A DNA stretch of 60,954 bases from a virus (taxonomy: Duplodnaviria; Caudoviricetes). The DNA is taken from positions 1 through 60,954 of the IMG/VR virus record IMGVR_UViG_3300030708_003161; one strand, 5' to 3'. This document shows, one piece after another, positions 1,800 through 59,207 of this stretch; position 1 is the stretch's first letter, and the number at the start of each line of letters is the position of its first letter. The translations under genes and the position numbers were made by a program. The notes beneath the pieces are model-generated. The model was not told the origin of the DNA. It did not search any database and saw only the letters and a program-made list of their open reading frames with translations.

Positions 1800-3395
1800 A
1801 TGGGAGTACAATTCGGTGGGCCTAAAATAGTTAAGGCCCTTAGTTTTAAAAAAGAAGCCAAAGATGGCCTTATTAAAGGTATTAAAAAGTTATCAAATGC
1901 CGTATCAGTAACACTGGGTGCATCTGGTAGAACAGTAGTTTTAGAAGATGACTTTGGCAATCCTCATGTAACAAAAGACGGTGTTACAGTAGCAAATTAT
2001 GTAAACCTAGAAGATCCACTAGAAAATCTAGGTGCTACTATGTTGAAGCAAGCCGCAAAACAAACAGCAACAAAAGCAGGCGACGGTACAACAACATCCA
2101 CAGTGCTAGCTGAAAACATAATGAAAAGTTACTTTAATTTAAAAGGAGAAGACTTTTCGTTTAGAGATATTAAAAGCGGTATAGATAAGTTTGTAAAAAA
2201 AGTCGTAGAGTTTTTAGATAAAAAAGCATCACCGGTAGATGAAAAGATGTTAAATCACGTATCTACCATTTCTTGTAACAATGACAAAGAGCTTGGAAAC
2301 TTTATTGCGGATGCGTTTAAATTAGCAGGTGAAAATGGTGTAGTAACAATGGAAACATCACCAACAAATGAAACCTATATAGATTCAGTAAACGGTACAC
2401 ATATAAAGTCAATAAGTAAAAGTATACACTTTTATACTAATAGAGAAAAAGAAGTGTCGGAGCTTGAGAAGCCGTTAATATTCCTATGTGCTTCTGATAT
2501 AGATAATATCCGACGTATTCAAACAATATTAGAGTTCGCGATTAAGTCCAACCAGTCGTTGTTACTCATTGCTCCTTGCGACCAGCAAATCATTTCAGCA
2601 TTAGCTATGAATTTCGTAAAGGGCAATATACGTTGCAATGTTATCGATCCTCCTTCTTTCGGACTTAAAAGAAAGGATATACTGGATGACATTGCCCTTT
2701 TAACGGGTGCAACTGTTATAGATGAAAATCTAGGCGACTCACTAGATAATATTACATCTGATGTGCTCGGTAATGCATCAAAGGCTATAATTGATACAGA
2801 TGGTACAACTATAGCTATAGATGAGATTCCAGAAGGAGTCAAAGAAAGAGTTGAGTATCTTCAAAAACAATTAGATGAAGAAGAACACCATATAATGAGG
2901 CCGCATTTAGAATATAGGTTATCTATATTAAATGGCGGTGTTTCAATGGTTTATGTTGGCGGAGATACTGAAGTGGAAGTATCAGAAAAAAAAGATAGAG
3001 TTGACGATGCAATTCATGCTGTTAGAGCTGCAAAGAAAGAAGGTATACTACCGGGAGGTGGTATAGCACTGGTAGCAGCAGCGAGTATGGATTGGGATTT
3101 AACACTCAATCAAGGTGAATTAAAAGGTGTTGATATAATGAAAGAAGCACTTTTATCACCATATAATACAATACTAAGCAATGCAGGATTAAATCCTGAA
3201 GATTTTAAAGGTATATCATTTAAAAAAGGTGTTGACGTAATAGACGGCAGCATAAAAGATATGATAAAAGCCGGTATAGTCGATCCACTGCTTGTAACTA
3301 AATCAGCGCTGTTAAATGCTGTATCAGTTGCAACTACTATACTTTCAACCGATTGTGTAATTTCAAATGTTAGAGATTATGAAAGCGATAGGTAA
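1800..3395 (+). CDS. groEL: Phage chaperonin GroEL (Cpn60)
   Basis: VTKDGVTVA, AGDGTTT, KDRVDDAIHA, GILPGGG and GIVDP motifs; 531 aa; no GGM tail. Confidence 0.97.
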   Translation: MGVQFGGPKIVKALSFKKEAKDGLIKGIKKLSNAVSVTLGASGRTVVLEDDFGNPHVTKDGVTVANYVNLEDPLENLGATMLKQAAKQTATKAGDGTTTSTVLAENIMKSYFNLKGEDFSFRDIKSGIDKFVKKVVEFLDKKASPVDEKMLNHVSTISCNNDKELGNFIADAFKLAGENGVVTMETSPTNETYIDSVNGTHIKSISKSIHFYTNREKEVSELEKPLIFLCASDIDNIRRIQTILEFAIKSNQSLLLIAPCDQQIISALAMNFVKGNIRCNVIDPPSFGLKRKDILDDIALLTGATVIDENLGDSLDNITSDVLGNASKAIIDTDGTTIAIDEIPEGVKERVEYLQKQLDEEEHHIMRPHLEYRLSILNGGVSMVYVGGDTEVEVSEKKDRVDDAIHAVRAAKKEGILPGGGIALVAAASMDWDLTLNQGELKGVDIMKEALLSPYNTILSNAGLNPEDFKGISFKKGVDVIDGSIKDMIKAGIVDPLLVTKSALLNAVSVATTILSTDCVISNVRDYESDR

Positions 3396-37361: not shown

Positions 37362-40300
37362 ATGGAAGAATTAAATAGTATTATTGGGGAAATGATTGCT
37401 AACGGGGAGCCGCAAGAAGTAATGGATGCTGTAATTGCAGAATGGGAAAACCGAAACCCAGGTGTATTAAATAACGAATCATTAAATACAGAACCTTTAG
37501 GCACTGAACAATCTAATTTTGATGAAATAATACCTGAAGATCAAAATTGGTTTGAAAGAAATATTGGAGATAATATACCCGGTATTGAGTTTATGAGTGA
37601 TTTATATAGAGATATACAAAGGGGTATTGCTATAGGTCAAACTACAGACGAAAAAGCTAGATTATTCACAGGAGATAGTTCAGATGAAGCAATTCAAGAT
37701 TATATTAAAACCACTAAAGAAGTTGGTGAGTTAAAGCAATCTGAAGAAATGCAACAATATAATAAATTTTTGCAAGAATATAAAGATCAAGGTGACTCCG
37801 ATGCATTAGCTTGGTTTAAAGCACAGGCTAAGTCAACTTTAAAAGGTGATGGTGTTTTAATGGGTATGTTTGCAGAATCATTAGCTTCTCAGGCTTCTAC
37901 AATATTTGCATCACCTGGGCAAGCCGCAATAGTAGGAGCAGGAGCTTTTACTGGAGCAAAAGTAAGTGGAGCTATAGGTGCGGCGGCTAGCAGCTGGACA
38001 GGGCCTTTAGCAGGTGTTTTTTCTGCTTTTAGTGCCGCTGGTGGTGCAGTAGCAGGTGCAAGGTCTGCTTCTATGGGTATATTAGAAACAACCTCAACAT
38101 TTAATGATTTATTATCTGAAAAAATAAAAGAAAGAGGAGGCGATCCATTAAATGCTGAAGATATTAGAGCTGTACTTGAAGATGAAGAAGCAATGGGTGA
38201 ATTAAGAAGAAATTCATTAGCGAGAGGATTTACTATTAGTGCATTTGAAGGAGCTGCTGGATTAGTTGGAGCAGGTGTTGCTGCTAAAACTGTAGTTTCA
38301 AAAGCAGGCAAATTTGTAAGAGCTTCTAAAGTAGCCGGAGTTGAAGCCGTAGGTGGTGGTACTGGTGAATTTGCGGGTCAATTAGCAGCCGGTCAAGATA
38401 TAAATGTAGAAGAAATACTAACTGAAGCATTTACAGGTACAGGTATGGCTGCAACAAGTATTGCAGCAGGACAGTTTAATAGAAAAGGTATTGCAGAATA
38501 TAATTTAAATGGTGAGAAAGATGCAAAGCTTAGAGGTGAAATTGAAGATCTTGTAGAAAATGGTACAGATGAACAGTTTGTAAATAGTAAAGTAAAAGTT
38601 GAAAACGATAAAACTCTTCAAGATAAAATAAATAAAAGAAGAAAAAAGATTGTTAAAGAAAACAAACAAGTAGTAAAAGATAAAATTAAACCTAAAGTTG
38701 TTGAAGAAGTTGAAAAAAGAATTGATGCAAAAATTTTAAAACTACAACAACAAATAAAACAAGTTGAAAAAGAAGATGGCCCAGTTGCTGCTGCTGCTTT
38801 TAAAAAACAACTAGAAATAGAAAAAAAGAAGAAAGAAGATATTAATAAAATCATGTTTGAGCAGTTAGATCAATTAAGTGAAGAAGAAACACTTAATTTG
38901 ATGAACATGGATGACGAAGTATCTATTTATCAGTCTATATTAAATGATCCTAATTCTACTGAGTTAGCAAAACAATCTGCAAAAGAACAATTAGCTTTAT
39001 TAAAAGCAGCACAATTAGAAGTAGTAAACAATCCTGATTCTGTTGATATGGCTAAAGAAGATGGACCAGTAAGTAAAAAGAATAAAGACTTATCTGATAA
39101 AACTCAAAAGGCTTACGAAAGAAAAGGTAAAGATGCATGGGCTGAAGTTTCAGAATATCAAGCAGGTATTATAAATACTATAGCACATTCTATGTGGTCT
39201 AAAATACCAAAAGAAAAAAGAGTAGGCACTATAGAAGATTTTATATCTGGTCTTAAAAGTGATAAAGAAGGGATAAGAGGATTACTTAAAACTTATGATC
39301 CTACAACAGGTGTGCCTTTAGCTGCTTATATCCAAAATCCTATATCTGGAATAAGAGTAAGAGCTAATAGGATAATAAAAAGATATGTAAAGCAAGACAT
39401 AGAAGAAGATGTAACTAGTCAACAGTTTAAAGATTATTATACTACAGAAGAAGCTATAGATTTAGATAGAAGATATTTACACGAGAAGCTTAAATTAAAT
39501 CCTATATTAGCAGATTTAGAAAGTACAACAGAGGTAGCATATCAAAAAGCTAGAAATGAATTAGAAACAATAGGTAATGTTACACAGAAAAAACAAAGAA
39601 AAGCTTTAATAAAAGCATTTGATAAAATATTTAAAGGTAAATATGATAAAAAAATAAAAGACTTTGTAGGTAAAAATACTAAATCTGAAAAAACATTTAG
39701 TAAATTTTTAAAAGATAATTTACCTGCATTAAAATTAGCGGTGGTTGCAAATATTAATTCTCAAATGTCTAATGATAATATTATGAGTACGTGGACAAAG
39801 GTTCCTCCTACCGATCAAGATTTTTTAGATTATTATGAAGGTAAAGATATTAGCCCTGACCAACCTGCTAGTGTTAAAAGTGATAGAAAAACAAAATTAG
39901 TAGAAGCTATTAGAAGACAATTAGGTATAGACGCCCGCGCTTCCTTTAGAGAACAATTTGCTGAAGATCTACCTCAATTTCAACAAATCGATGAAGTCGA
40001 AGTATTTAATTCTAAAGATTTTTTAGATAAACTAAATTTTATTTTTACAGAACCCAGCGAGGTTATTGGTAAAGAAGCTAAAGATGTAGAAGATGCTGAG
40101 GTAGAAAACAATATTAACAAAGTTATAGAAAATCAAATTGTTCCAAATTTAAATAAAAACTTTGATAACCAAAATACTAAAAAGTTAGATCCTAATAATG
40201 AAAATGATTTGCCAGAAATTTATGAAGAATGGCAAAGCTATATTACTAAAGGTTATGTATCTCCTGCTGTATTACAAAAAATGGGACAGTTTGGAGCTAA

Positions 40301-43300
40301 GGTTGCTTATAAAGATATAAATGGTAAATTTCATCCTACTAAAACAGCTGCTAAATTAGGTAATGATAAAGCTAAGCCTAAAAAGTATTATGAAATGAAA
40401 GAGGCTGTAGAGGGAAGTGAAGAGTCTAATGGAAAACAATATTTACCGTTTGACATTGACACTAAAAACCCTGAGCTTGAAGGAAAATTTAAACCTGCAA
40501 GAGGCGGTTTATATTATGGTACTGTAGATCCCTTATATAAAAACCATTTAAAATTAGCTCAAGAAAAATATCCTAAACAAAAAATTTCTAAAAAAGGAAA
40601 ATTAAATTTATTTGGTAAAATAAATAATGTAATATCAAATAATTTAGTAAATTATCCTATATTAAAAAAATTAGTAGACGGTTATGCTTCAAGTGTACAA
40701 GACAATCAAGAAATTGTTATGCAAATGGCTGAAGATATGGCGGATGCTATCCAAAAAGGAGAAGCAAATCCGTGGGTTATGTCATTAGGATTAAAAACTG
40801 CATATAAAGGTACTGATGGATTATTAAAAACTTCATATGAATTTAAAGGATATGAGCAAGGTACCTTAGAATTTGGAGATGGTAAATTTGCAGAAAATTA
40901 TAAAGGTAACTCTAAGCGTAGAGTAAGAGAAGAACACTCCCCACCTGTTAGTTCATTTGCAGCTAAACTTTTATTAGCTACATCTATGGTAAAATCTGAA
41001 AACATGCGTCCTCTCATTCAAAAAATGTATAAGGATGCAGGGCAATATTTAATTTCTTTTAAGCATGATCAAGATTTAGAAACCGCTAAGTTAGGTGCTA
41101 GTATTGTAGAGGGAGATGTAATTGGGCAAAACTCAGGACTACATAGAATTTTACAAGTTATTCCTGCAAATAAATTAGTTTTAATTAAAGATAATATTAC
41201 TGTAGAAGAATTAAATGATAAAATTAAAGATGCAATTCAAACAAAAAAGCCTGCAGAAAGAATATTACAAGGCGTAACACAGCAATTTGAACAGGATAAT
41301 CAGCAAGATATTCCTTTATCAGATAACGAAAGAATAGAAGCATTTACTGATATACTTAGTTTAGCTTATCCTGATAAAATCATAATGACTAACAGAGAAG
41401 ATGTTATTAAATATCTAACAGCTAATTTTCCTAGAAAATTTCCAAATAGAAAAGCAGCAGAAAAAGTTATAGATAATGCAAGAGGATTTAGAGATAGTAA
41501 TGTTATATTTCTTAATCCCGGAAAAGCTACTTTAGAAACGGTAATGCATGAATTTACTCATGAATGGGCTTATATAGTTAAAGATAGAGATCCTGAATTA
41601 TTCAACGCTATATATGAAAAAATACAAGGGCACCCTAGATTTAAAGAGGCTGTTGAAAGAATGAAAGAACCTGGAGTTGGTGGTTATAGCGAAATGAGTC
41701 CTGATTCATTTGAATATAAAAATGAAGTAATAGCTTATATATTAGGAAAAGAAGGCTCATCTCTTTATGAATTATTTGCAGGTGATGCTGAAGCTAAATC
41801 TTTAATAGATAAGTTCTTTGATTATGTAAGAGAAGCTTTAGGTTTTGATCCTACAGTTAAAAACTTTTCAGATTTAACAGTTGAAGAAGTAATTAAATTA
41901 ACTGTTAAAGATATTGTAGAGGGTAATCCTGCTGCTAATTTTGATAAATTAAAAAATAAATCTGAAGGTAAAAGTTGGTTTGCTAAAACAGAAGCAAATC
42001 AAAGTCCTAGTCAAAAAGCTAAATTAGATCCTATATTAAGAGCTTTTAATAAAATTAAATTATCATATAGAGAAAATAAAGATTTAGCACAAGCTATTGT
42101 TGACGCTTATCCAGAAGTAGAAAGCAGCATGGAGTTTGGTGATTTTGTTAAATTAGTATTACAAAATACTAAAGAAACTGAAATAGGTGAATCTAAAACG
42201 CTTCTTATAGCAAAAAATGATGTATTAAAAGCAAATAAAATAGCTGAAGAAAGTACTAAAAAGTTAGAACAAGATAAAATTAAAGAAGAAGATAAATCTA
42301 CTCTTCAAAATAAATTTAGAAGAATGATTTATAAAGCCGCAGCGGAAGGGGCAAAAGCATCTAGATGGTTTATACCACCAAGTGCTGAAGACTTTAAAGG
42401 TTTGCTATACACGTTTTTACCAAAAGGCAAAGCTGGTGTTGAAGCCCGTAAATTTTTAGAAGAACATTTATTAAAACCTTATTCTGATGGTATTGCTGCC
42501 CTTGATACTGAAATATTAAATAAAAGTAAAGCTTGGGAAAAAATGTCTAAAGGATATAACCTTAATGAAAAAGTAGAGGGTACTCCATATACAATAGGCG
42601 ATGCTATAAAAATTTATAATGCTGTTAAGCGTGGTGATGATGTTACTATTGCAAAACAAAAACACATGGATGCTTTAATTCATAAAGTTGAAAGTGATCA
42701 AAGTCTTTTAGATTTAGCTGAAGCTATTGAAGAAAGTTTTCCTATTGATATAAAAGATGGGTGGCAAAATAAAACTTTAGCTAAAGAAGTATTTGATGCT
42801 ATTAATAATGGTGCTAGAGAAAGAGCTTTAAAAACTTTTTCTGAAAATGTAGATGCAATATTTAATGATACCACAATGGATCTTATTGGTGATCAATTTG
42901 GAAACAACTTTAAACAAGCATTAAAAAACACCCTTAGAAGGATGAAATCTGGTCGTAATAGGGTAAGTACAGACGCACAGTCTAATGTGTGGTTAAACTG
43001 GATTAATAGAGCCGTAGGGACGACTATGTTCTTTAATAGCAGATCAGCTTTGCTGCAAACTATTTCATCTCTTAATTTTATAGGATTAAAAGATAACAAT
43101 ATATTTCAAGCAGCAGCTGCATATGCAAATAGAAAACAATTTCAAGAAGATTATAAAAAATTATGGAATAGTGACTATTTAAAAAATAGAAGAGACGGTG
43201 CAAAGTTTGATGTACTAGCAGATGAAATTGCAGAAGGAGATCCACAAGGAATAAATAAATTATTAAAAAACGGATTTCTACCAACTAGATATGCAGATAG

Positions 43301-44546
43301 TTTTGCTATTGCTTTAGGAGGTGCGGCGTTTTATAGAAATAGAGTAAATGCTTTAGTTAAGCAAGGGATGGATGTAAAGCAAGCTGAACAACAAGCTATG
43401 AATGATTGGAGAAAAGAAGCTGAAAATTCACAGCAATCTGCAGATCCTTCTAAAATATCTGAAATACAAGCATCGTCACTTGGTAGAATTATATATGCTT
43501 TTGCTAATACACCTTTCCAGTATGCTAGAATTGTTAAAAGAAGATTACAAGATATAACATCTGGTAGGTCTGCAGCTGAAGGTAGAGTACAAAGTGATCT
43601 TGGTACTATATTATATTATGGGGCTGTGCAAGCTGTAATGTTTAATGCATTACAATCAGGGTTAGCTGCTCTTGCTTTTGGAGATGATGATGATGAAGAA
43701 ATTAAAAAACTAAAAGATAAAAAATATTTAATGTCTATTGAAAGAGGTTTAACTTCTTTTGCTAAATCTTTAGGTAATCCAGGTGCGGTTTCTGCTACAC
43801 TTTATTCTTTAATGAAAGAAGGGTATTTGCAACAAACAGGACAAAAAAGACCTGATCCAAATGCTTTTGCAATAACAGCTACAAGCATATCACCACCTAT
43901 AAATTCTAAACTTAGAGATTTAGCTTCTGCTTATAGATCATTTAATAAAATAGATGAGGATGATTTGTTAACACCTTCTTTAGACAATGAAGCTTTAACT
44001 ATGTCTGGTGAAATCGCTTCTTTTGCAGGTGTACCTTTAGATAGAGTAATTCGTAAAGCTAGACACTTAGCAGCTATTAAAAATGAAGAATTAGAAGCTT
44101 GGCAAAAATTATGGTTAGTATTAGGATGGAATGAATGGGATTTAGGTGTTGATACTAAAGTTAGTAAAAATTTATTTCAAGAGGCGGAATTTGATAGTGA
44201 TGATTTTAAAGAAGCAGAGTTTGAAGAATCAACATTTAAAAAATTAAAACCCGGTGTTGCAGGTGTAGCAAATAATGATGGAACTATAGAATTAGATCCT
44301 AATTTATCACCTGAAGAAAAAAGAAAAACTATACAACACGAGAAGCAACATTTGCTTGATATGAAAAATAAAAAAATAAAGTTAAACTACGACGATAACT
44401 TTGTTTATTATAAAAATAAAAAATATAAAAGAGCAAATGGTAATATAGTATATAACGGGAAATCCTATATAGAGGGTCACCCAGACTTGCCTTGGGAAAA
44501 GAGGGCATATAAAGCAGAGAAAACTAGAAAGTTTTTGTATGCATAA
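37362..44546 (+). CDS. Giant polyvalent virion/ejection protein (G/A-rich membrane segment, sigma-like segment, two HExxH motifs)
   Basis: 2394 aa; YDPTTGVPLAAY; MHEFTH; C-terminal QHEKQH...LPWEKRAY. Confidence 0.78.
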   Translation: MEELNSIIGEMIANGEPQEVMDAVIAEWENRNPGVLNNESLNTEPLGTEQSNFDEIIPEDQNWFERNIGDNIPGIEFMSDLYRDIQRGIAIGQTTDEKARLFTGDSSDEAIQDYIKTTKEVGELKQSEEMQQYNKFLQEYKDQGDSDALAWFKAQAKSTLKGDGVLMGMFAESLASQASTIFASPGQAAIVGAGAFTGAKVSGAIGAAASSWTGPLAGVFSAFSAAGGAVAGARSASMGILETTSTFNDLLSEKIKERGGDPLNAEDIRAVLEDEEAMGELRRNSLARGFTISAFEGAAGLVGAGVAAKTVVSKAGKFVRASKVAGVEAVGGGTGEFAGQLAAGQDINVEEILTEAFTGTGMAATSIAAGQFNRKGIAEYNLNGEKDAKLRGEIEDLVENGTDEQFVNSKVKVENDKTLQDKINKRRKKIVKENKQVVKDKIKPKVVEEVEKRIDAKILKLQQQIKQVEKEDGPVAAAAFKKQLEIEKKKKEDINKIMFEQLDQLSEEETLNLMNMDDEVSIYQSILNDPNSTELAKQSAKEQLALLKAAQLEVVNNPDSVDMAKEDGPVSKKNKDLSDKTQKAYERKGKDAWAEVSEYQAGIINTIAHSMWSKIPKEKRVGTIEDFISGLKSDKEGIRGLLKTYDPTTGVPLAAYIQNPISGIRVRANRIIKRYVKQDIEEDVTSQQFKDYYTTEEAIDLDRRYLHEKLKLNPILADLESTTEVAYQKARNELETIGNVTQKKQRKALIKAFDKIFKGKYDKKIKDFVGKNTKSEKTFSKFLKDNLPALKLAVVANINSQMSNDNIMSTWTKVPPTDQDFLDYYEGKDISPDQPASVKSDRKTKLVEAIRRQLGIDARASFREQFAEDLPQFQQIDEVEVFNSKDFLDKLNFIFTEPSEVIGKEAKDVEDAEVENNINKVIENQIVPNLNKNFDNQNTKKLDPNNENDLPEIYEEWQSYITKGYVSPAVLQKMGQFGAKVAYKDINGKFHPTKTAAKLGNDKAKPKKYYEMKEAVEGSEESNGKQYLPFDIDTKNPELEGKFKPARGGLYYGTVDPLYKNHLKLAQEKYPKQKISKKGKLNLFGKINNVISNNLVNYPILKKLVDGYASSVQDNQEIVMQMAEDMADAIQKGEANPWVMSLGLKTAYKGTDGLLKTSYEFKGYEQGTLEFGDGKFAENYKGNSKRRVREEHSPPVSSFAAKLLLATSMVKSENMRPLIQKMYKDAGQYLISFKHDQDLETAKLGASIVEGDVIGQNSGLHRILQVIPANKLVLIKDNITVEELNDKIKDAIQTKKPAERILQGVTQQFEQDNQQDIPLSDNERIEAFTDILSLAYPDKIIMTNREDVIKYLTANFPRKFPNRKAAEKVIDNARGFRDSNVIFLNPGKATLETVMHEFTHEWAYIVKDRDPELFNAIYEKIQGHPRFKEAVERMKEPGVGGYSEMSPDSFEYKNEVIAYILGKEGSSLYELFAGDAEAKSLIDKFFDYVREALGFDPTVKNFSDLTVEEVIKLTVKDIVEGNPAANFDKLKNKSEGKSWFAKTEANQSPSQKAKLDPILRAFNKIKLSYRENKDLAQAIVDAYPEVESSMEFGDFVKLVLQNTKETEIGESKTLLIAKNDVLKANKIAEESTKKLEQDKIKEEDKSTLQNKFRRMIYKAAAEGAKASRWFIPPSAEDFKGLLYTFLPKGKAGVEARKFLEEHLLKPYSDGIAALDTEILNKSKAWEKMSKGYNLNEKVEGTPYTIGDAIKIYNAVKRGDDVTIAKQKHMDALIHKVESDQSLLDLAEAIEESFPIDIKDGWQNKTLAKEVFDAINNGARERALKTFSENVDAIFNDTTMDLIGDQFGNNFKQALKNTLRRMKSGRNRVSTDAQSNVWLNWINRAVGTTMFFNSRSALLQTISSLNFIGLKDNNIFQAAAAYANRKQFQEDYKKLWNSDYLKNRRDGAKFDVLADEIAEGDPQGINKLLKNGFLPTRYADSFAIALGGAAFYRNRVNALVKQGMDVKQAEQQAMNDWRKEAENSQQSADPSKISEIQASSLGRIIYAFANTPFQYARIVKRRLQDITSGRSAAEGRVQSDLGTILYYGAVQAVMFNALQSGLAALAFGDDDDEEIKKLKDKKYLMSIERGLTSFAKSLGNPGAVSATLYSLMKEGYLQQTGQKRPDPNAFAITATSISPPINSKLRDLASAYRSFNKIDEDDLLTPSLDNEALTMSGEIASFAGVPLDRVIRKARHLAAIKNEELEAWQKLWLVLGWNEWDLGVDTKVSKNLFQEAEFDSDDFKEAEFEESTFKKLKPGVAGVANNDGTIELDPNLSPEEKRKTIQHEKQHLLDMKNKKIKLNYDDNFVYYKNKKYKRANGNIVYNGKSYIEGHPDLPWEKRAYKAEKTRKFLYA

Positions 44547-49483: not shown

Positions 49484-49759
49484 CTAATATGTAATATCCC
49501 AGTTTTGATCTGTAGTATCTGATGTCCAACTAGACTCAGGGTATTTACTTATTTTTTTATCTTCTTCAATTAATACAGCTCTAATTTTTTCAATATAGTT
49601 AGCAGCATCCATAAGTTCTTCTTGTAGATGATTAAGCCAAGTATCAAGTGATTGTTCATCTTTATCTAAACCAACACCATACTTTTTATAACCTGCTTCA
49701 GCACGCTTTTGAATCTTATCAATTACGCGATTAATTATTTTATCGTTTATTTTACTCAT
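49484..49759 (-). CDS. MazG-superfamily-like small NTP pyrophosphatase
   Basis: R...G..KYG...WLNHLQEELMDAANY. Confidence 0.6.
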   Translation of the reverse strand: MSKINDKIINRVIDKIQKRAEAGYKKYGVGLDKDEQSLDTWLNHLQEELMDAANYIEKIRAVLIEEDKKISKYPESSWTSDTTDQNWDITY

Positions 49760-50513
49760 CTTTTACAAATGTTCCGTTAACCATTTTACCTGTTCTTTTA
49801 GAAATTACATTAAATGATTCATTAATACAATCTTCAATTTTAAACCCTTCTAGCTCTGAAAGATTAGCAAGGACTATTACCATATCACCAATAGCGTCTT
49901 TTATTTCAGCTTTATTTTGCTTTAATAATGCTTGCGCAAGTTCTCCTGCTTCTTCCATTAATTTAACATACTGAGTTTTACTATCACCTTTTTGGTATAG
50001 ATTACGATCTTTAGCCCAGTTTCTTATCTTATTAAATGCTGATGTGCTATTAGGTTTAAATGCTTTAGTAAAAGCTTTATTGTAAATATAACACGTACCC
50101 GGGCCAAACTGGCTTGCATGTACATTAGTTAATATCCAATCAATATAATCTTCATTATTTAATTCAAATATGCCTTCAGGTAATTCTAATGTAATGTCTT
50201 TTAAAAATTCAGCATTAATATCATTAGGTGATATTTTAAATGTTGTTGTTGCCTGCGATGAGCTATGCTTATTCATTTTTTTACGGAATAAATCTTTATA
50301 TAATTTAATATCTGTTTTATATTTAAGTTCTTTTTGTAAATTTCTTTCAGCCTCTGAAGCCTCTACTATATCATCTGTTTCATATAGTATATCGTATTCA
50401 CCAGGTTTATATCCCTGTTCTTCTTCAACGCGTTTCTTAACATTAGTTGTACAACCAATCTTAACACCGGGTATATGGTATATTTTGTATTTACCTTTCT
50501 GTAGTTCTATCAT
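49752..50513 (-). CDS. MazG-like NTP pyrophosphohydrolase with N-terminal GIY-YIG-like domain
   Basis: C-terminal KLMEEAGELA...DAIGD...KRTG; N-terminal KIYHI..KIGCT..KKR. Confidence 0.8.
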   Translation of the reverse strand: MIELQKGKYKIYHIPGVKIGCTTNVKKRVEEEQGYKPGEYDILYETDDIVEASEAERNLQKELKYKTDIKLYKDLFRKKMNKHSSSQATTTFKISPNDINAEFLKDITLELPEGIFELNNEDYIDWILTNVHASQFGPGTCYIYNKAFTKAFKPNSTSAFNKIRNWAKDRNLYQKGDSKTQYVKLMEEAGELAQALLKQNKAEIKDAIGDMVIVLANLSELEGFKIEDCINESFNVISKRTGKMVNGTFVKDE

Positions 50514-55372: not shown

Positions 55373-56104
55373 CTATTTTTCTAAAAATTTTTCAATAATT
55401 TCTTTTACTTCAGTTTGTTTTAATTTTTGCAAAGCTTTAGCTTTTGTTTTCTTAATCCACACAATTGATTTTTTATATTTTTCAGCTATTCTAGCTAATC
55501 CTACTTTTCTATCAAATGGTTCATCTATACCATAAAACATGCATAACACATCTTTTTCAAATGGTGTTAAAAATATATCCATAACATCATTTAAATGTTC
55601 ATTTAATCTATCATTGCTATAATTAGATATTTCATCAACTACATCCATATAATGCGCATTGAAAAACGATGCAAATGTTCTAGTTAAAAATATATCAATT
55701 TGATAGTTTAAATCATATTTACCCTCGTAGGCAGTTCCGTGAGGCTTTAACTTATAATATGCCTCAGGAATTCTAATAGTGTCTCTATCGTGAGCTATGG
55801 CCCGTTTAATTCCGTTTTTAATATTGATTTTAAGATAATTAATTATAATTCCAGTTCTTTCTTCTTCTGGGGCCGCATTAATTATCTTCCAATCAAGTTT
55901 TGACCAAGCTCTATAAAAACTATAATAGCCTTCCTGTAATAAATCATTTAAGTCTAATATACCTATTCTGTTCCACGCTCTTTCAAACGAATTAGCCAAA
56001 CTTCTTGGCCATTGTATATAAGGCATGTGTTCAGAGTCTATTAGCTTACCACTGTCTATTTCTTTTAAATGAAATTTATATGTTGGGTGGCTATACCACT
56101 TCAT
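55373..56104 (-). CDS. Phage sigma-70-family RNA polymerase sigma factor
   Basis: Region 2 DLLQEG...IKRAI..RDTIRIP; region 4 LTPFEKDVL..FYGI...LARIA...KAKALQKLK. Confidence 0.85.
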   Translation of the reverse strand: MKWYSHPTYKFHLKEIDSGKLIDSEHMPYIQWPRSLANSFERAWNRIGILDLNDLLQEGYYSFYRAWSKLDWKIINAAPEEERTGIIINYLKINIKNGIKRAIAHDRDTIRIPEAYYKLKPHGTAYEGKYDLNYQIDIFLTRTFASFFNAHYMDVVDEISNYSNDRLNEHLNDVMDIFLTPFEKDVLCMFYGIDEPFDRKVGLARIAEKYKKSIVWIKKTKAKALQKLKQTEVKEIIEKFLEK

Positions 56105-58193: not shown

Positions 58194-58526
58194 TTAATCT
58201 TCTTTTTGTTCTAGCCATTCAATTACTTCTTGCTCAGGCAAATAAGCTTCAGCATCTACATATATTCTTACCTCACTACCATAACCTAAATCGTGACATG
58301 TTTCTTCTATCCTTTCCATAATAGTATCAAATCTTGGTTCGTAATAATATACATCATTTTCCCAATCAATGTTTCTAGCATCATTTGTCATAACATATAA
58401 TGTATAATCATCAGCAGTATACCATTCAGATAATTCTAAATCAGGATTGTGTAAGTCATCACTGATTTTAACAATGCTATCATATTTATCGCTTAAGTAT
58501 TTTTCTAATTCATTTATATAATTCAT
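58194..58526 (-). CDS. Acidic hypothetical protein
   Basis: Start moved to MNYINELEK because the track start lies inside tRNA-Gly. Confidence 0.65.
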   Translation of the reverse strand: MNYINELEKYLSDKYDSIVKISDDLHNPDLELSEWYTADDYTLYVMTNDARNIDWENDVYYYEPRFDTIMERIEETCHDLGYGSEVRIYVDAEAYLPEQEVIEWLEQKED

Positions 58527-58546
58527 TCTATTTAATTTAAAGTTAG

Positions 58547-58619
58547 AGCGAAAAGTGGGAATCGAACCCACAACCTTTAGATTGGAAATCTAATGCTCTG
58601 CCAATTGAGCTATTTTCGC
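58547..58619 (-). tRNA. tRNA-Gly(TCC)
   Basis: GCGAAAA/TTTTCGC acceptor stem, U73, TTAGA-TT-TCC-AA-TCTAA anticodon arm, GTGGG-TTCGATT-CCCAC T arm; CCA not encoded. Confidence 0.95.
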
Positions 58620-58623
58620 ATAA

Positions 58624-58744
58624 GGAGGCGGATGAAACTAGGAATGATATGCAATACACTTCCGTAATGTCTCTCATGTCAACAAGACACACATGCACAA
58701 CTGTTTATATCATCTTTCTACCTTTCGGCTTCCTGACTACCTCC
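58624..58744 (-). ncRNA. Candidate structured ncRNA
   Basis: GGAGGT/GCCTCC closing stem, GCC-GAAA-GGT hairpin, GATGATAT/ATATCATT and TGTCT/AGACA helices; lies between two tRNAs. Confidence 0.55.
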
Positions 58745-58809
58745 AATAGCAGTTGTATGTTCCTGAATGAGATTTAACCATTTGAACAAGAAACTATCAA
58801 TCTGCTTTT

Positions 58810-58883
58810 GTGCGCGGGGTGGACTCGAACCACCGACCTCGAGTTTATGAGACTCGCGAGCTGACCATCTGCTCTACCGCGCA
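58810..58883 (-). tRNA. tRNA with CAT anticodon (Met, atypical initiator-like)
   Basis: TGCGCGG/CCGCGCA acceptor stem, GAGC/GCTC D stem, CGAGT-CT-CAT-AA-ACTCG anticodon arm, GGTGG-TTCGAGT-CCACC T arm. Confidence 0.92.
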
Positions 58884-58973
58884 ATATTATATCGTTTCCA
58901 ATATTCTATTTCAAACAATTCAATTTGTTCTTTTGACATTTTTAATAGAACATTTTTTTTATTTCTTCTTTTT

Positions 58974-59207
58974 TTAGTCAATATATTCTTCATCTGTATC
59001 TTTTAACCATTCTTTTTTAGAATCTAATTCCATAATTTTGATTGTCATATAGTCAATTACATTTTGAACTGAAAACTTTTTAGATTTCATAAGTTTAGGA
59101 TATACTTTTTCTATAGCATATTCAACTGAAAATGTATCAATATGTTTTTCAACATTATTTTTTAAATCTAATATATCTACATAATTTTTTAAGTCTATTT
59201 TATTCAT
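58974..59207 (-). CDS. Hypothetical early protein
   Basis: 77-aa ORF just downstream of the repeated promoter motif. Confidence 0.6.
   Translation of the reverse strand: MNKIDLKNYVDILDLKNNVEKHIDTFSVEYAIEKVYPKLMKSKKFSVQNVIDYMTIKIMELDSKKEWLKDTDEEYID

Follow-up and report, generated by a model that had tools for sequence, protein, structure and literature searches.

The stretch of DNA analysed here, called the window throughout, is the whole of IMG/VR record IMGVR_UViG_3300030708_003161, a viral record of 60,954 base pairs (bp) from an uncultured marine phage, rated 94% complete. Towards its end, on the minus strand, a tRNA-Met gene and a tRNA-Gly gene enclose a spacer of 190 nucleotides (nt), which contains a 59-nt hairpin (58748-58806), referred to below as hairpin C, and a 121-nt element (58624-58744). 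The element is closed by the helix GGAGGU/GCCUCC (P1), and the 5′ end of the tRNA-Gly begins 4 nt past P1. An original prediction, made from the letters alone, had described this spacer as one or more unassigned structured noncoding RNAs between two tRNAs and as GC-richer than nearby intergenic DNA. Both flanking tRNAs are called by ARAGORN on the minus strand, and the GC fraction of the spacer is 0.36-0.44 vs. 0.10-0.25 in the upstream intergenic DNA. Comparison with relatives places the 121-nt element in a conserved family of RNAs that fold independently and occur in uncultured marine phages; there is good support for such a family, with a pseudoknot and swappable arms. The prediction stands in that the family covaries, has no Rfam model and is accompanied by a separate second module, whereas the central helix that had been assigned to the core proved to be wrong.

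Fold of the 121-nt element

Two alignments of the family carry most of the figures given below. A6 is a 22-row model-guided alignment, which leaves out L022, L030, L035, L042, L024 and the L267 copies, and A3 is a plain, structure-blind MAFFT alignment of 25 members. The parts of the window copy, in 5′ to 3′ order, are as follows.

58739-58744 (-): P1 5′ strand GGAGGU; both sides change in all 6 P1 pairs (22 rows), with 88.4% of cells paired
58736-58738 (-): junction A-G-U; the G and the U are invariant in alignments A4 and A6
58730-58735 (-): pseudoknot 5′ strand CAGGAA, partner 58638-58644; 95.2% of cells paired, 2 pairs with double changes and 3 that never vary
58720-58729 (-): hp1, the GCC-GAAA-GGU hairpin and first variable arm; its stem covaries
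58715-58719 (-): junction AGAAA; the three A's preceding P3 are invariant (A3, A4)
58710-58714 (-): P3 5′ strand GAUGA, partner 58631-58635; 12 different strand pairs in the family
58701-58709 (-): loop L2, UAUAAACAG; nearly invariant, (U/G)AUAAA(C/A)AG in 29 of 29 members
58645-58700 (-): hp2 region, the second variable arm, here a 56-nt cassette; 4-61 nt across members
58638-58644 (-): pseudoknot 3′ strand UUCCUAG, with one extra A; covariation over 29 members
58636-58637 (-): linker UU; present in 27 of 29 members as parsed, the exceptions being L024 (UGU) and L054 (mis-registered in parsing)
58631-58635 (-): P3 3′ strand UCAUC; MAFFT-only alignment and 29-member comparison
58630 (-): invariant C at the P3/P1 boundary; invariant column in A3
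58624-58629 (-): P1 3′ strand GCCUCC; covariation

Across the family the order is P1, a linker of 0-5 nt, an invariant G-U, the pseudoknot strand with the consensus C(A/U)GG(AA/CG), hp1, an A-rich GAAA, P3 and L2, followed by hp2, the return strand of the pseudoknot, UU, the return strand of P3, the invariant C and the return strand of P1. P1 is 6-11 bp long, the hp1 region spans 7-69 nt, the hp2 region 4-61 nt, and each P3 strand consists of a G plus 4 nt. Members measure 64-167 nt, the shortest being L069 at 64 nt, and are built around a core with about 17 invariant unpaired letters. The invariant G of the junction at 58736-58738 may pair with the invariant C at 58630, as suggested by members that have no linker. 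In the window copy, P1, this G:C pair and P3 form a continuous 12-nt 3′ strand.

Because single-sequence folding hardly beats shuffled sequences, the case for this fold rests on covariation and not on folding energy. Of the cells in A6, 93.1% are paired, a level attained by 0 of 500 shuffles (77.7% paired); both partners vary in 15 of 20 pairs, and the covariation score is 0.476 vs. 0.197. As a control, sliding the 3′ partners by 1-3 columns leaves 31.6-53.7% of the cells paired. P1 and P3 were in the model behind A6, and the alignment therefore favours both; for this reason P3 was retested on A3, where 98.4% of its cells are paired vs. 81.3% in shuffles (again 0 of 500), with double changes in 4 of 5 pairs. 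The pseudoknot was absent from the aligning model, yet 95.2% of its cells pair in A6. This 6-bp helix joins CAGGAA with UUCCU(A)G in the window copy; its second position is A:U in 14 members and U:A in 15, without exception among the 29, and its last two positions alternate between AA/UU and CG/UG. The six non-pairs at one of its columns are extra-letter variants, in which a neighbouring U can pair. Covariation, which had been proposed as a check together with the original prediction, thus supports P1, P3 and the pseudoknot.

Two points weigh against reading too much into these figures. Because the members are related, counting cells overstates how many changes arose independently, and the 12 different strand pairs of P3 give a sturdier measure. 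In addition, the folding energy of the window element is unremarkable, with z = -1.71 and 10 of 200 shuffles folding as well, and for the whole spacer z is -1.23 (minus strand) or -0.61 (plus strand). The comparison with shuffled controls is accordingly weak for the element; the values for hairpin C are listed further below. Minimum free energy (MFE) folds of minimal members recover P1, hp1 and P3, with z = -3.34 for L069 and -3.09 for L048.

Most of the helices first seen by inspection are retained in this fold. The closing helix GGAGGU/GCCUCC and the GCC-GAAA-GGU hairpin with its GNRA loop are present, and both stems covary in relatives. The preference for the minus strand, argued originally from G.U pairs, agrees with the last P1 pair, which is U:G in 9 of the 22 rows. 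UGUCU/AGACA sits within the variable arm hp2, where GUCU/AGAC becomes GUCC/GGAC in two relatives, i.e., one compensatory change, seen by eye. The exception is the nested helix GAUGAUAU/AUAUCAUU, which is the MFE choice for the window copy but is not conserved: with 75.7% of its cells paired it does not stand out from shuffles (75.2%; 179 of 500 attain its level), and it scores 0.128 for covariation, where the shuffles score 0.142. It was replaced by P3, in which GAUGA pairs with UCAUC, and by the pseudoknot.

The family, its exchangeable arms and the accompanying modules

The family comprises 29 distinct full-length members and 2 truncated ones, spread over 34 contigs, marine viral or metagenomic. 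Two viral contigs were reached with an exact 27-mer of the element; when they are aligned with the window, all three sequences agree exactly over the 5′ 44 nt and the 3′ 24 nt of the element, while the middle is unalignable and of differing length; exact sub-patterns of the element likewise reached only 2 viral contigs, and the ligase gene used as bait only 4 close relatives. A pattern for the 5′ part of the tRNA-Gly yielded one further viral contig and 31 marine metagenome contigs, with diverged versions of the element upstream. A degenerate core pattern run over viral contigs gave 23 new stretches, 8 of which have the complete architecture, and a 23-mer of hairpin C led to viral contig L267, in which the order is hairpin, two members in tandem and a tRNA-Met. 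A covariance model, R1, was built from 12 members; it finds 30 places at E ≤ 0.05, including 18 of the 31 metagenome loci and a single place in the window. R1 misses L024 and L037, which were found by pattern and by eye, and misaligns the 5′ half of the long-hp1 members L022, L030, L035 and L042.

Searches in cultured phages and in cellular genomes delimit this distribution. Among 50,697 phage records compared by blastn with 58400-59000, 32 match, at the tRNAs only. R1 finds no member in any of five cultured or complete relatives picked by their terminase (62% to 30% identity), where its matches are a lone 19-bit one inside a primase/helicase gene and one of 13 bits. Two degenerate patterns, which reach hp1 regions of up to 38 nt, gave 67 and at least 120 stretches in prokaryotic genome contigs. 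Over the 187 genome-contig matches listed, R1 recognizes one true member, L234 (66.2 bits), and all others score at most 29 bits. L234 lies on a 17.5-kb contig binned with a Gammaproteobacteria metagenome-assembled genome. Over 5.3 kb this contig matches viral contig L054 at 99.5% identity, and it has the minimal member of L054, so that it represents the L054 phage itself and does not point to a cellular gene. Within the reach of these patterns, the family thus belongs to phages. We note that the binning of L234 could hint at the host of the L054 phage or be an error. Many of the matches in the filamentous marine cyanobacteria Okeania, Dapis, Trichodesmium and Microcoleaceae (e.g., L203 and L229) consist of a GUCAGG-rich repeat with an A-rich stretch behind it, a dispersed repeat native to these organisms and distinct from the phage RNA. 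A literature search on the motif letters returned only unrelated primer sequences, and the portion of Weinberg 2010 available to us names no such motif.

The two arms behave as exchangeable cassettes of 0 to about 65 nt. Besides GCC-GAAA-GGU, the hp1 stems include GUCAC-GCAA-GUGAC (L048) and AUCAC-GCAA-GUGAU, and in other members a larger domain fills an hp1 region of 43-69 nt. The second arm, hp2, is absent from the minimal members L027, L048, L054 and L069 and elsewhere belongs to several unrelated cassette types. The type found in the window recurs in L020, L026 and L028. L003, L020 and L067 have one type in common, and L035 and copy 1 of L267 have another, in each case on different core variants. 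In a contig from RNA-library run X2, 38 nt of hp2 (window 58655-58694) are skipped, which is a further natural variant of arm length. When the window is compared with two sister contigs, the flanking open reading frames (ORFs) are 88-95% identical, the tRNAs 95-100% and the core arms 100% (68/68 nt), but no more than 26-36% of the length of hp2 and of the hairpin can be aligned. Since the core arms are identical while hp2 barely aligns, the arms turn over by cassette replacement and not by drift. In addition, the inner part of hp2 in L059 (member at L059:405-519) recurs in L039 as a free-standing, stem-closed module between tRNAs, so that arms and free modules share parts. Such cassette mosaicism at one spot in near-identical phages points to a fast, selected turnover of RNA parts, which has rarely been documented.

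The remaining features of the locus are the following.

58886-58914 (-): sigma-70-like promoter TTGAAA-17 nt-TATAAT; 11 of 12 consensus letters, a consensus match only
58810-58883 (-): tRNA-Met (anticodon CAT); ARAGORN, and the Rfam tRNA model at 63 bits
58748-58806 (-): hairpin C, a 59-nt stem-loop; MFE -13.3 kcal/mol, z = -2.09, 11 of 200 shuffles as good
58546-58619 (-): tRNA-Gly (anticodon TCC); ARAGORN, and the Rfam tRNA model at 77.8 bits

Hairpin C, which had been seen originally as a second hairpin of about 59 nt, has no relative among the loci collected earlier and one relative in viral contig L267, with an almost identical interior. The L267 hairpin keeps 21 pairs. Two of these are preserved by double changes, A-U for G-C and U-A for C-G, both within the closing stem, and one U.G has become C-G. 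It is absent from L002 and is replaced in L003 by a different module, B. Together, the two sequences lend modest support to hairpin C as a probable real module that is separate from the pseudoknot family.

Several other modules occupy the same position in related loci. Module B, of about 63 nt, has closing stems that change in step (GGAGACG/CGUCUCC vs. GAAAACG/CGUUUUC) and folds with z = -3.54; it is found at L016:4703-4775 (-) and also in L003, L017, L020, L032, L039 and L043-L045, where it occupies the tRNA-Met/tRNA-Gly spacer alone or precedes the element. Downstream of the element, L022 (608-721, +), L030, L020 and L025 have a module of some 100 nt with the closing stem GGCUAGU/ACUAGCC, and L028, L036 and L019 carry still other modules. 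AU-rich linkers of 4-5 nt border each module. In L267:7638-7939 (-), two tandem members with different hp1 and hp2 stand between the hairpin C relative and the tRNA-Met, and L020 has two copies of the element. These tRNA operons thus carry a whole set of small structured RNAs. The sister viral contigs behind L005 and L006 (G001 and G002) end inside the tRNA-Gly, beside the variable spot, and assemblies seem to break at this mosaic place. Annotation would gain from the family too, since the spot that breaks assemblies carries spurious ORFs.

Production and possible roles

The promoter-like site stops 2 nt short of the mature 5′ end of the tRNA-Met, and the stretch that contains it, 58884-58973, is 100% identical in the two sister contigs. 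On the basis of its letters, it is the probable start of the operon. A transcript starting from it would begin at or inside the tRNA-Met, which would leave scarcely any leader for RNase P. The neighbouring genes are those of replication and nucleotide metabolism (ligase, primase/helicase, ERF, a PDDEXK nuclease, ThyA, RNR, MazG and a sigma-like protein). For the terminase, the identities are 62% with that of an uncultured podovirus, 46% with those of Flavobacterium elemo phages and 35-38% with those of Cellulophaga phages. Elsewhere in the window we note four unusual phage proteins, namely a GroEL-type chaperonin (1800-3395, plus strand), the product of a 2394-aa ORF (37362-44546, plus strand), a T5orf172-MazG fusion (49752-50513, minus strand) and a protein with a weak match to sigma-70 region 4 (55373-56104, minus strand).

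Parts of the window occur in 14 RNA-library runs, and the placement of contigs covered four runs, one from each of four studies. From run X1, a 122-nt contig falls on 58627-58748, which is nearly exactly the element, and a 173-nt contig on 58758-58930. From X2, a 518-nt contig lies over 58400-58808 with 90-95% likeness, and from X4 a contig joins the tRNA-Met to a variant member. X3 placed no contig, and parts of the locus are uncovered in X1 and X4; we draw no conclusion from this. The contigs establish the presence of the locus in RNA libraries and are no proof of its transcription.

The explanation we tentatively favour, at a little under an even chance, is that the element is a stand-alone processed RNA whose core binds a partner; its mode of production is suggested by position. 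The tRNA-Met, hairpin C, the element and the tRNA-Gly would be transcribed together from the promoter preceding the tRNA-Met. Cleavage by RNase P at the 5′ end of the tRNA-Gly, 4 nt behind P1, would then free the 3′ side of the element, and RNase E, RNase Z or exonucleases could act at the AU-rich linkers. What remains would be a small, stable RNA whose two ends are held together in P1. More speculatively, a protein or other molecule may bind in a pocket made of the invariant unpaired letters around the pseudoknot, the swappable arms might brace the fold or set the specificity for the partner, and the RNA might act in trans during infection. Release by tRNA processing, which had been put forward in the original prediction, fits the 19 of 29 members that end within 15 nt of the 5′ end of a same-strand tRNA (2-12 nt away), as well as the promoter-like site; 4 of 29 members have no nearby tRNA. 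The decoy or antitoxin-like role also suggested in that prediction is speculative. A same-strand tRNA lies within 300 nt of 25 of the 29 members, and 4 of the 29 start within 15 nt of a tRNA 3′ end. The features that follow the element vary (tRNA-Gly, tRNA-Met, other RNA modules, a replication protein, a 90-aa protein of no assigned function), and tandem (L267) and double (L020) copies occur, which argues for a stand-alone RNA over a gene-specific one. The identity of the core arms in the sister contigs (68/68), where the flanking ORFs are 88-95% identical, indicates selection on the core.

Several observations weigh against this explanation. The association with tRNAs is partly built in, because 18 members were found via the tRNA-Gly pattern; among the 8 members found by the motif only, 3 end within 15 nt of a tRNA-Met, 1 lies 147 nt before one and 4 are without a tRNA. 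These four (L048, L054, L064 and L069) lie 17-20 nt before protein starts, as a leader would. The contigs from the RNA libraries give no ends, strand, size or level, and such libraries can contain DNA. Finally, the 19 window ORFs scanned include no evident partner protein.

The position of these four members agrees with a cis-acting leader, i.e., a 5′ stabiliser, a signal for processing or insulation, an antitermination RNA or a ligand-sensing aptamer that controls the next gene or tRNA. Every member closely precedes a same-strand feature, either a tRNA at 2-12 nt (19 of 29) or, in these four, a protein start, and where a member ends in CCUCU, 5-6 consecutive U come next. A closing helix of variable length around an invariant pseudoknotted core is, moreover, the usual build of an aptamer. 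However, the downstream features (two tRNAs, RNA modules, a replication protein and the 90-aa protein) have no common function, and there is no obvious target for a regulator between two tRNAs of one operon. No conserved alternative pairing with a ribosome-binding site or a terminator is seen, the linker and flank past P1 vary (UUAU, UAAA, ACUUAUA, etc.), and L267 has tandem copies. We consider such a role unlikely. By analogy, the element could also represent a new class of small self-cleaving ribozyme that helps to cut the polycistronic tRNA and early transcripts of the phage, as theta ribozymes are proposed to do next to tRNAs of gut phages. The minimum of 64 nt, the pseudoknotted core with its invariant unpaired letters and the optional peripheral stems would suit a ribozyme, as would the position directly adjoining phage tRNAs, in which small ribozymes are known according to the part of PMC10879173 available. 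Against this, the element has no Rfam match even at E up to 10, by eye its strand order is not that of the hepatitis delta virus (HDV) ribozyme and the letters of the hammerhead core are absent, and RNase P already cuts at the tRNA 5′ end. A self-cleaving activity is, in our estimate, quite improbable.

The behaviour of the arms suggests another function, in which an invariant chassis holds out a hypervariable hp2, and hp1 as well, to serve as decoy or guide against variable targets of host or phage. The wholesale exchange of hp2 between sister phages with identical core arms fits this, as do the occurrence of one hp2 type on different chassis (L003, L020 and L067; L035 and L267 copy 1), the free-standing copy of the L059 hp2 core in L039 and the two viral contigs that break inside the tRNA-Gly beside the spot. 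However, the minimal members L027, L048, L054 and L069 have no hp2, so that the core can do without it; being self-complementary hairpins, the cassettes are not free single strands, and no nuclease partner is found among the 19 ORFs scanned. An antisense seed, looked for in L2 only, finds no backing either, as the complement of this loop is not enriched in the window (3 occurrences vs. 1.87 expected; 26 of 100 shuffles reach 3). We regard a display or guide function as a poor prospect. A broader version, in which an arms race lies behind the exchanges, variable host factors such as tRNA-directed defence nucleases are bound or titrated by the cassettes, and the core provides stability, processing or a new catalysis, would accommodate some cassettes that also circulate free-standing in the same tRNA operons; it is speculative and we think it rather improbable. 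A degenerate tRNA or tRNA mimic is very improbable and largely refuted: its location in a tRNA operon, the paired, acceptor-like ends and the 12-nt 3′ strand of the window copy, which might resemble an acceptor stem stacked on a T stem, speak for it, but it is unseen by ARAGORN and by the Rfam tRNA model, which detect the flanking tRNAs only. Neither an acceptor-like stem of fixed length nor a T-loop motif, a discriminator or an NCCA after P1 is found, P1 being 6-11 bp, the linkers 0-5 nt and the flanks variable. The related idea of a tRNA minihelix, to which P1, P3 and the G:C pair would together contribute 12 bp, was dropped because the length of P1 varies. Lastly, modules that come and go between close relatives and the AU-rich linkers around them would suit an element acting as DNA (a recombination site or a mobile miniature element); this, like chance complementarity, is scarcely credible, being contradicted by G.U pairs on the minus strand only, compensatory changes in three helices and invariant loops.

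The family is a convenient case for the bench: it offers a minimal core of 64 nt, a pseudoknot backed by covariation, natural arm swaps and tandem paralogues. It would suit structure probing, screens for ribozyme activity or ligands and partner pull-downs.

Comparison with known RNAs

The family is uncatalogued in Rfam. At the gathering score, Rfam 15 (4227 models) finds only the two tRNAs in the window and only tRNAs in 19 related loci. With E up to 10, nothing falls on the element in five loci with minimal members, and in 58400-59000 the only match on the element is an opposite-strand SAM-SAH fragment of 12 nt and 13 bits. The Rfam search that had been suggested as a check of the original prediction therefore assigns no family at either threshold. 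A CRISPR-like or guide RNA finds no counterpart here, in that the conserved arms are not repeats of each other and the 19 window ORFs scanned include no partner nuclease; no RNA enzyme, reverse transcriptase, RNA-guided nuclease or TnpB-like family was found among the same ORFs.

The known classes of small ribozymes are modelled in Rfam. Hammerhead, twister, twister-sister, pistol and hatchet give no match to the element with E up to 10, and a CUGAUGA core is not seen by eye. The letters AGUC...ACAG may bear a likeness to helix P4 of RNase P. HDV-like ribozymes have a nested double pseudoknot, in which the 5′-terminal strand pairs internally. In the element, by contrast, the first strand pairs with the last. 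The theta ribozymes, which are minimal HDV-like ribozymes, nevertheless resemble it in being small, pseudoknotted and directly beside phage tRNA genes. In the part of PMC10879173 available to us, they are described as adjoining phage tRNAs, with a proposed role in tRNA maturation.

A second likeness is to riboswitches. The SAM-II/V and preQ1-II aptamers have a pseudoknot core, A-rich invariant loops and a closing helix of variable length, and the element has its own A-rich invariant loops, pseudoknot core and variable-length P1. As for a binding pocket or expression platform, the invariant pseudoknotted core is present and no conserved alternative pairing is seen. Unlike riboswitches, the element lies between tRNAs, its downstream genes are of no single functional class, and it has no Rfam match. 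The family may already figure, unnamed, in a survey of IMG/VR, for which the available part of PMC10690425 gives 10,006 candidate structured RNAs (csRNAs), predictions of the same kind from the same data source, including tRNA-like candidates and candidates upstream of genes.

Among larger phage RNAs, GOLLD and ROOL are, like the element family, built from a conserved core and variable parts, and models of both are in Rfam. They are far larger, RNA-only cages, whereas the element family measures 64-167 nt and has no Rfam match. As far as the accessible text of bioRxiv 10.1101/2024.12.08.627333 goes, GOLLD and ROOL are RNAs of phages or prophages, often near tRNA islands; many GOLLD members exceed 800 nt, and one marine GOLLD lies downstream of a Met-tRNA.

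By position, the nearest analogues are rnaC (species 1) and rnaD (species 2) of phage T4, which are 119 and 139 nt long in the T4 record and abut a tRNA-Arg, with gaps of 1-6 nt. With filters off, none of the 13 matches listed for R1 in the T4 region falls on rnaC or rnaD. By eye, rnaC has a tRNA-like T arm, which the element family is without, and host and phage type also differ. Like the element, however, rnaC and rnaD are structured RNAs other than tRNAs that abut a same-strand tRNA within a phage tRNA cluster, with no function assigned. To the unexplained stable RNAs of phage tRNA clusters, for which species 1 and 2 of T4 and later GOLLD and ROOL stand, the present family adds a small case.

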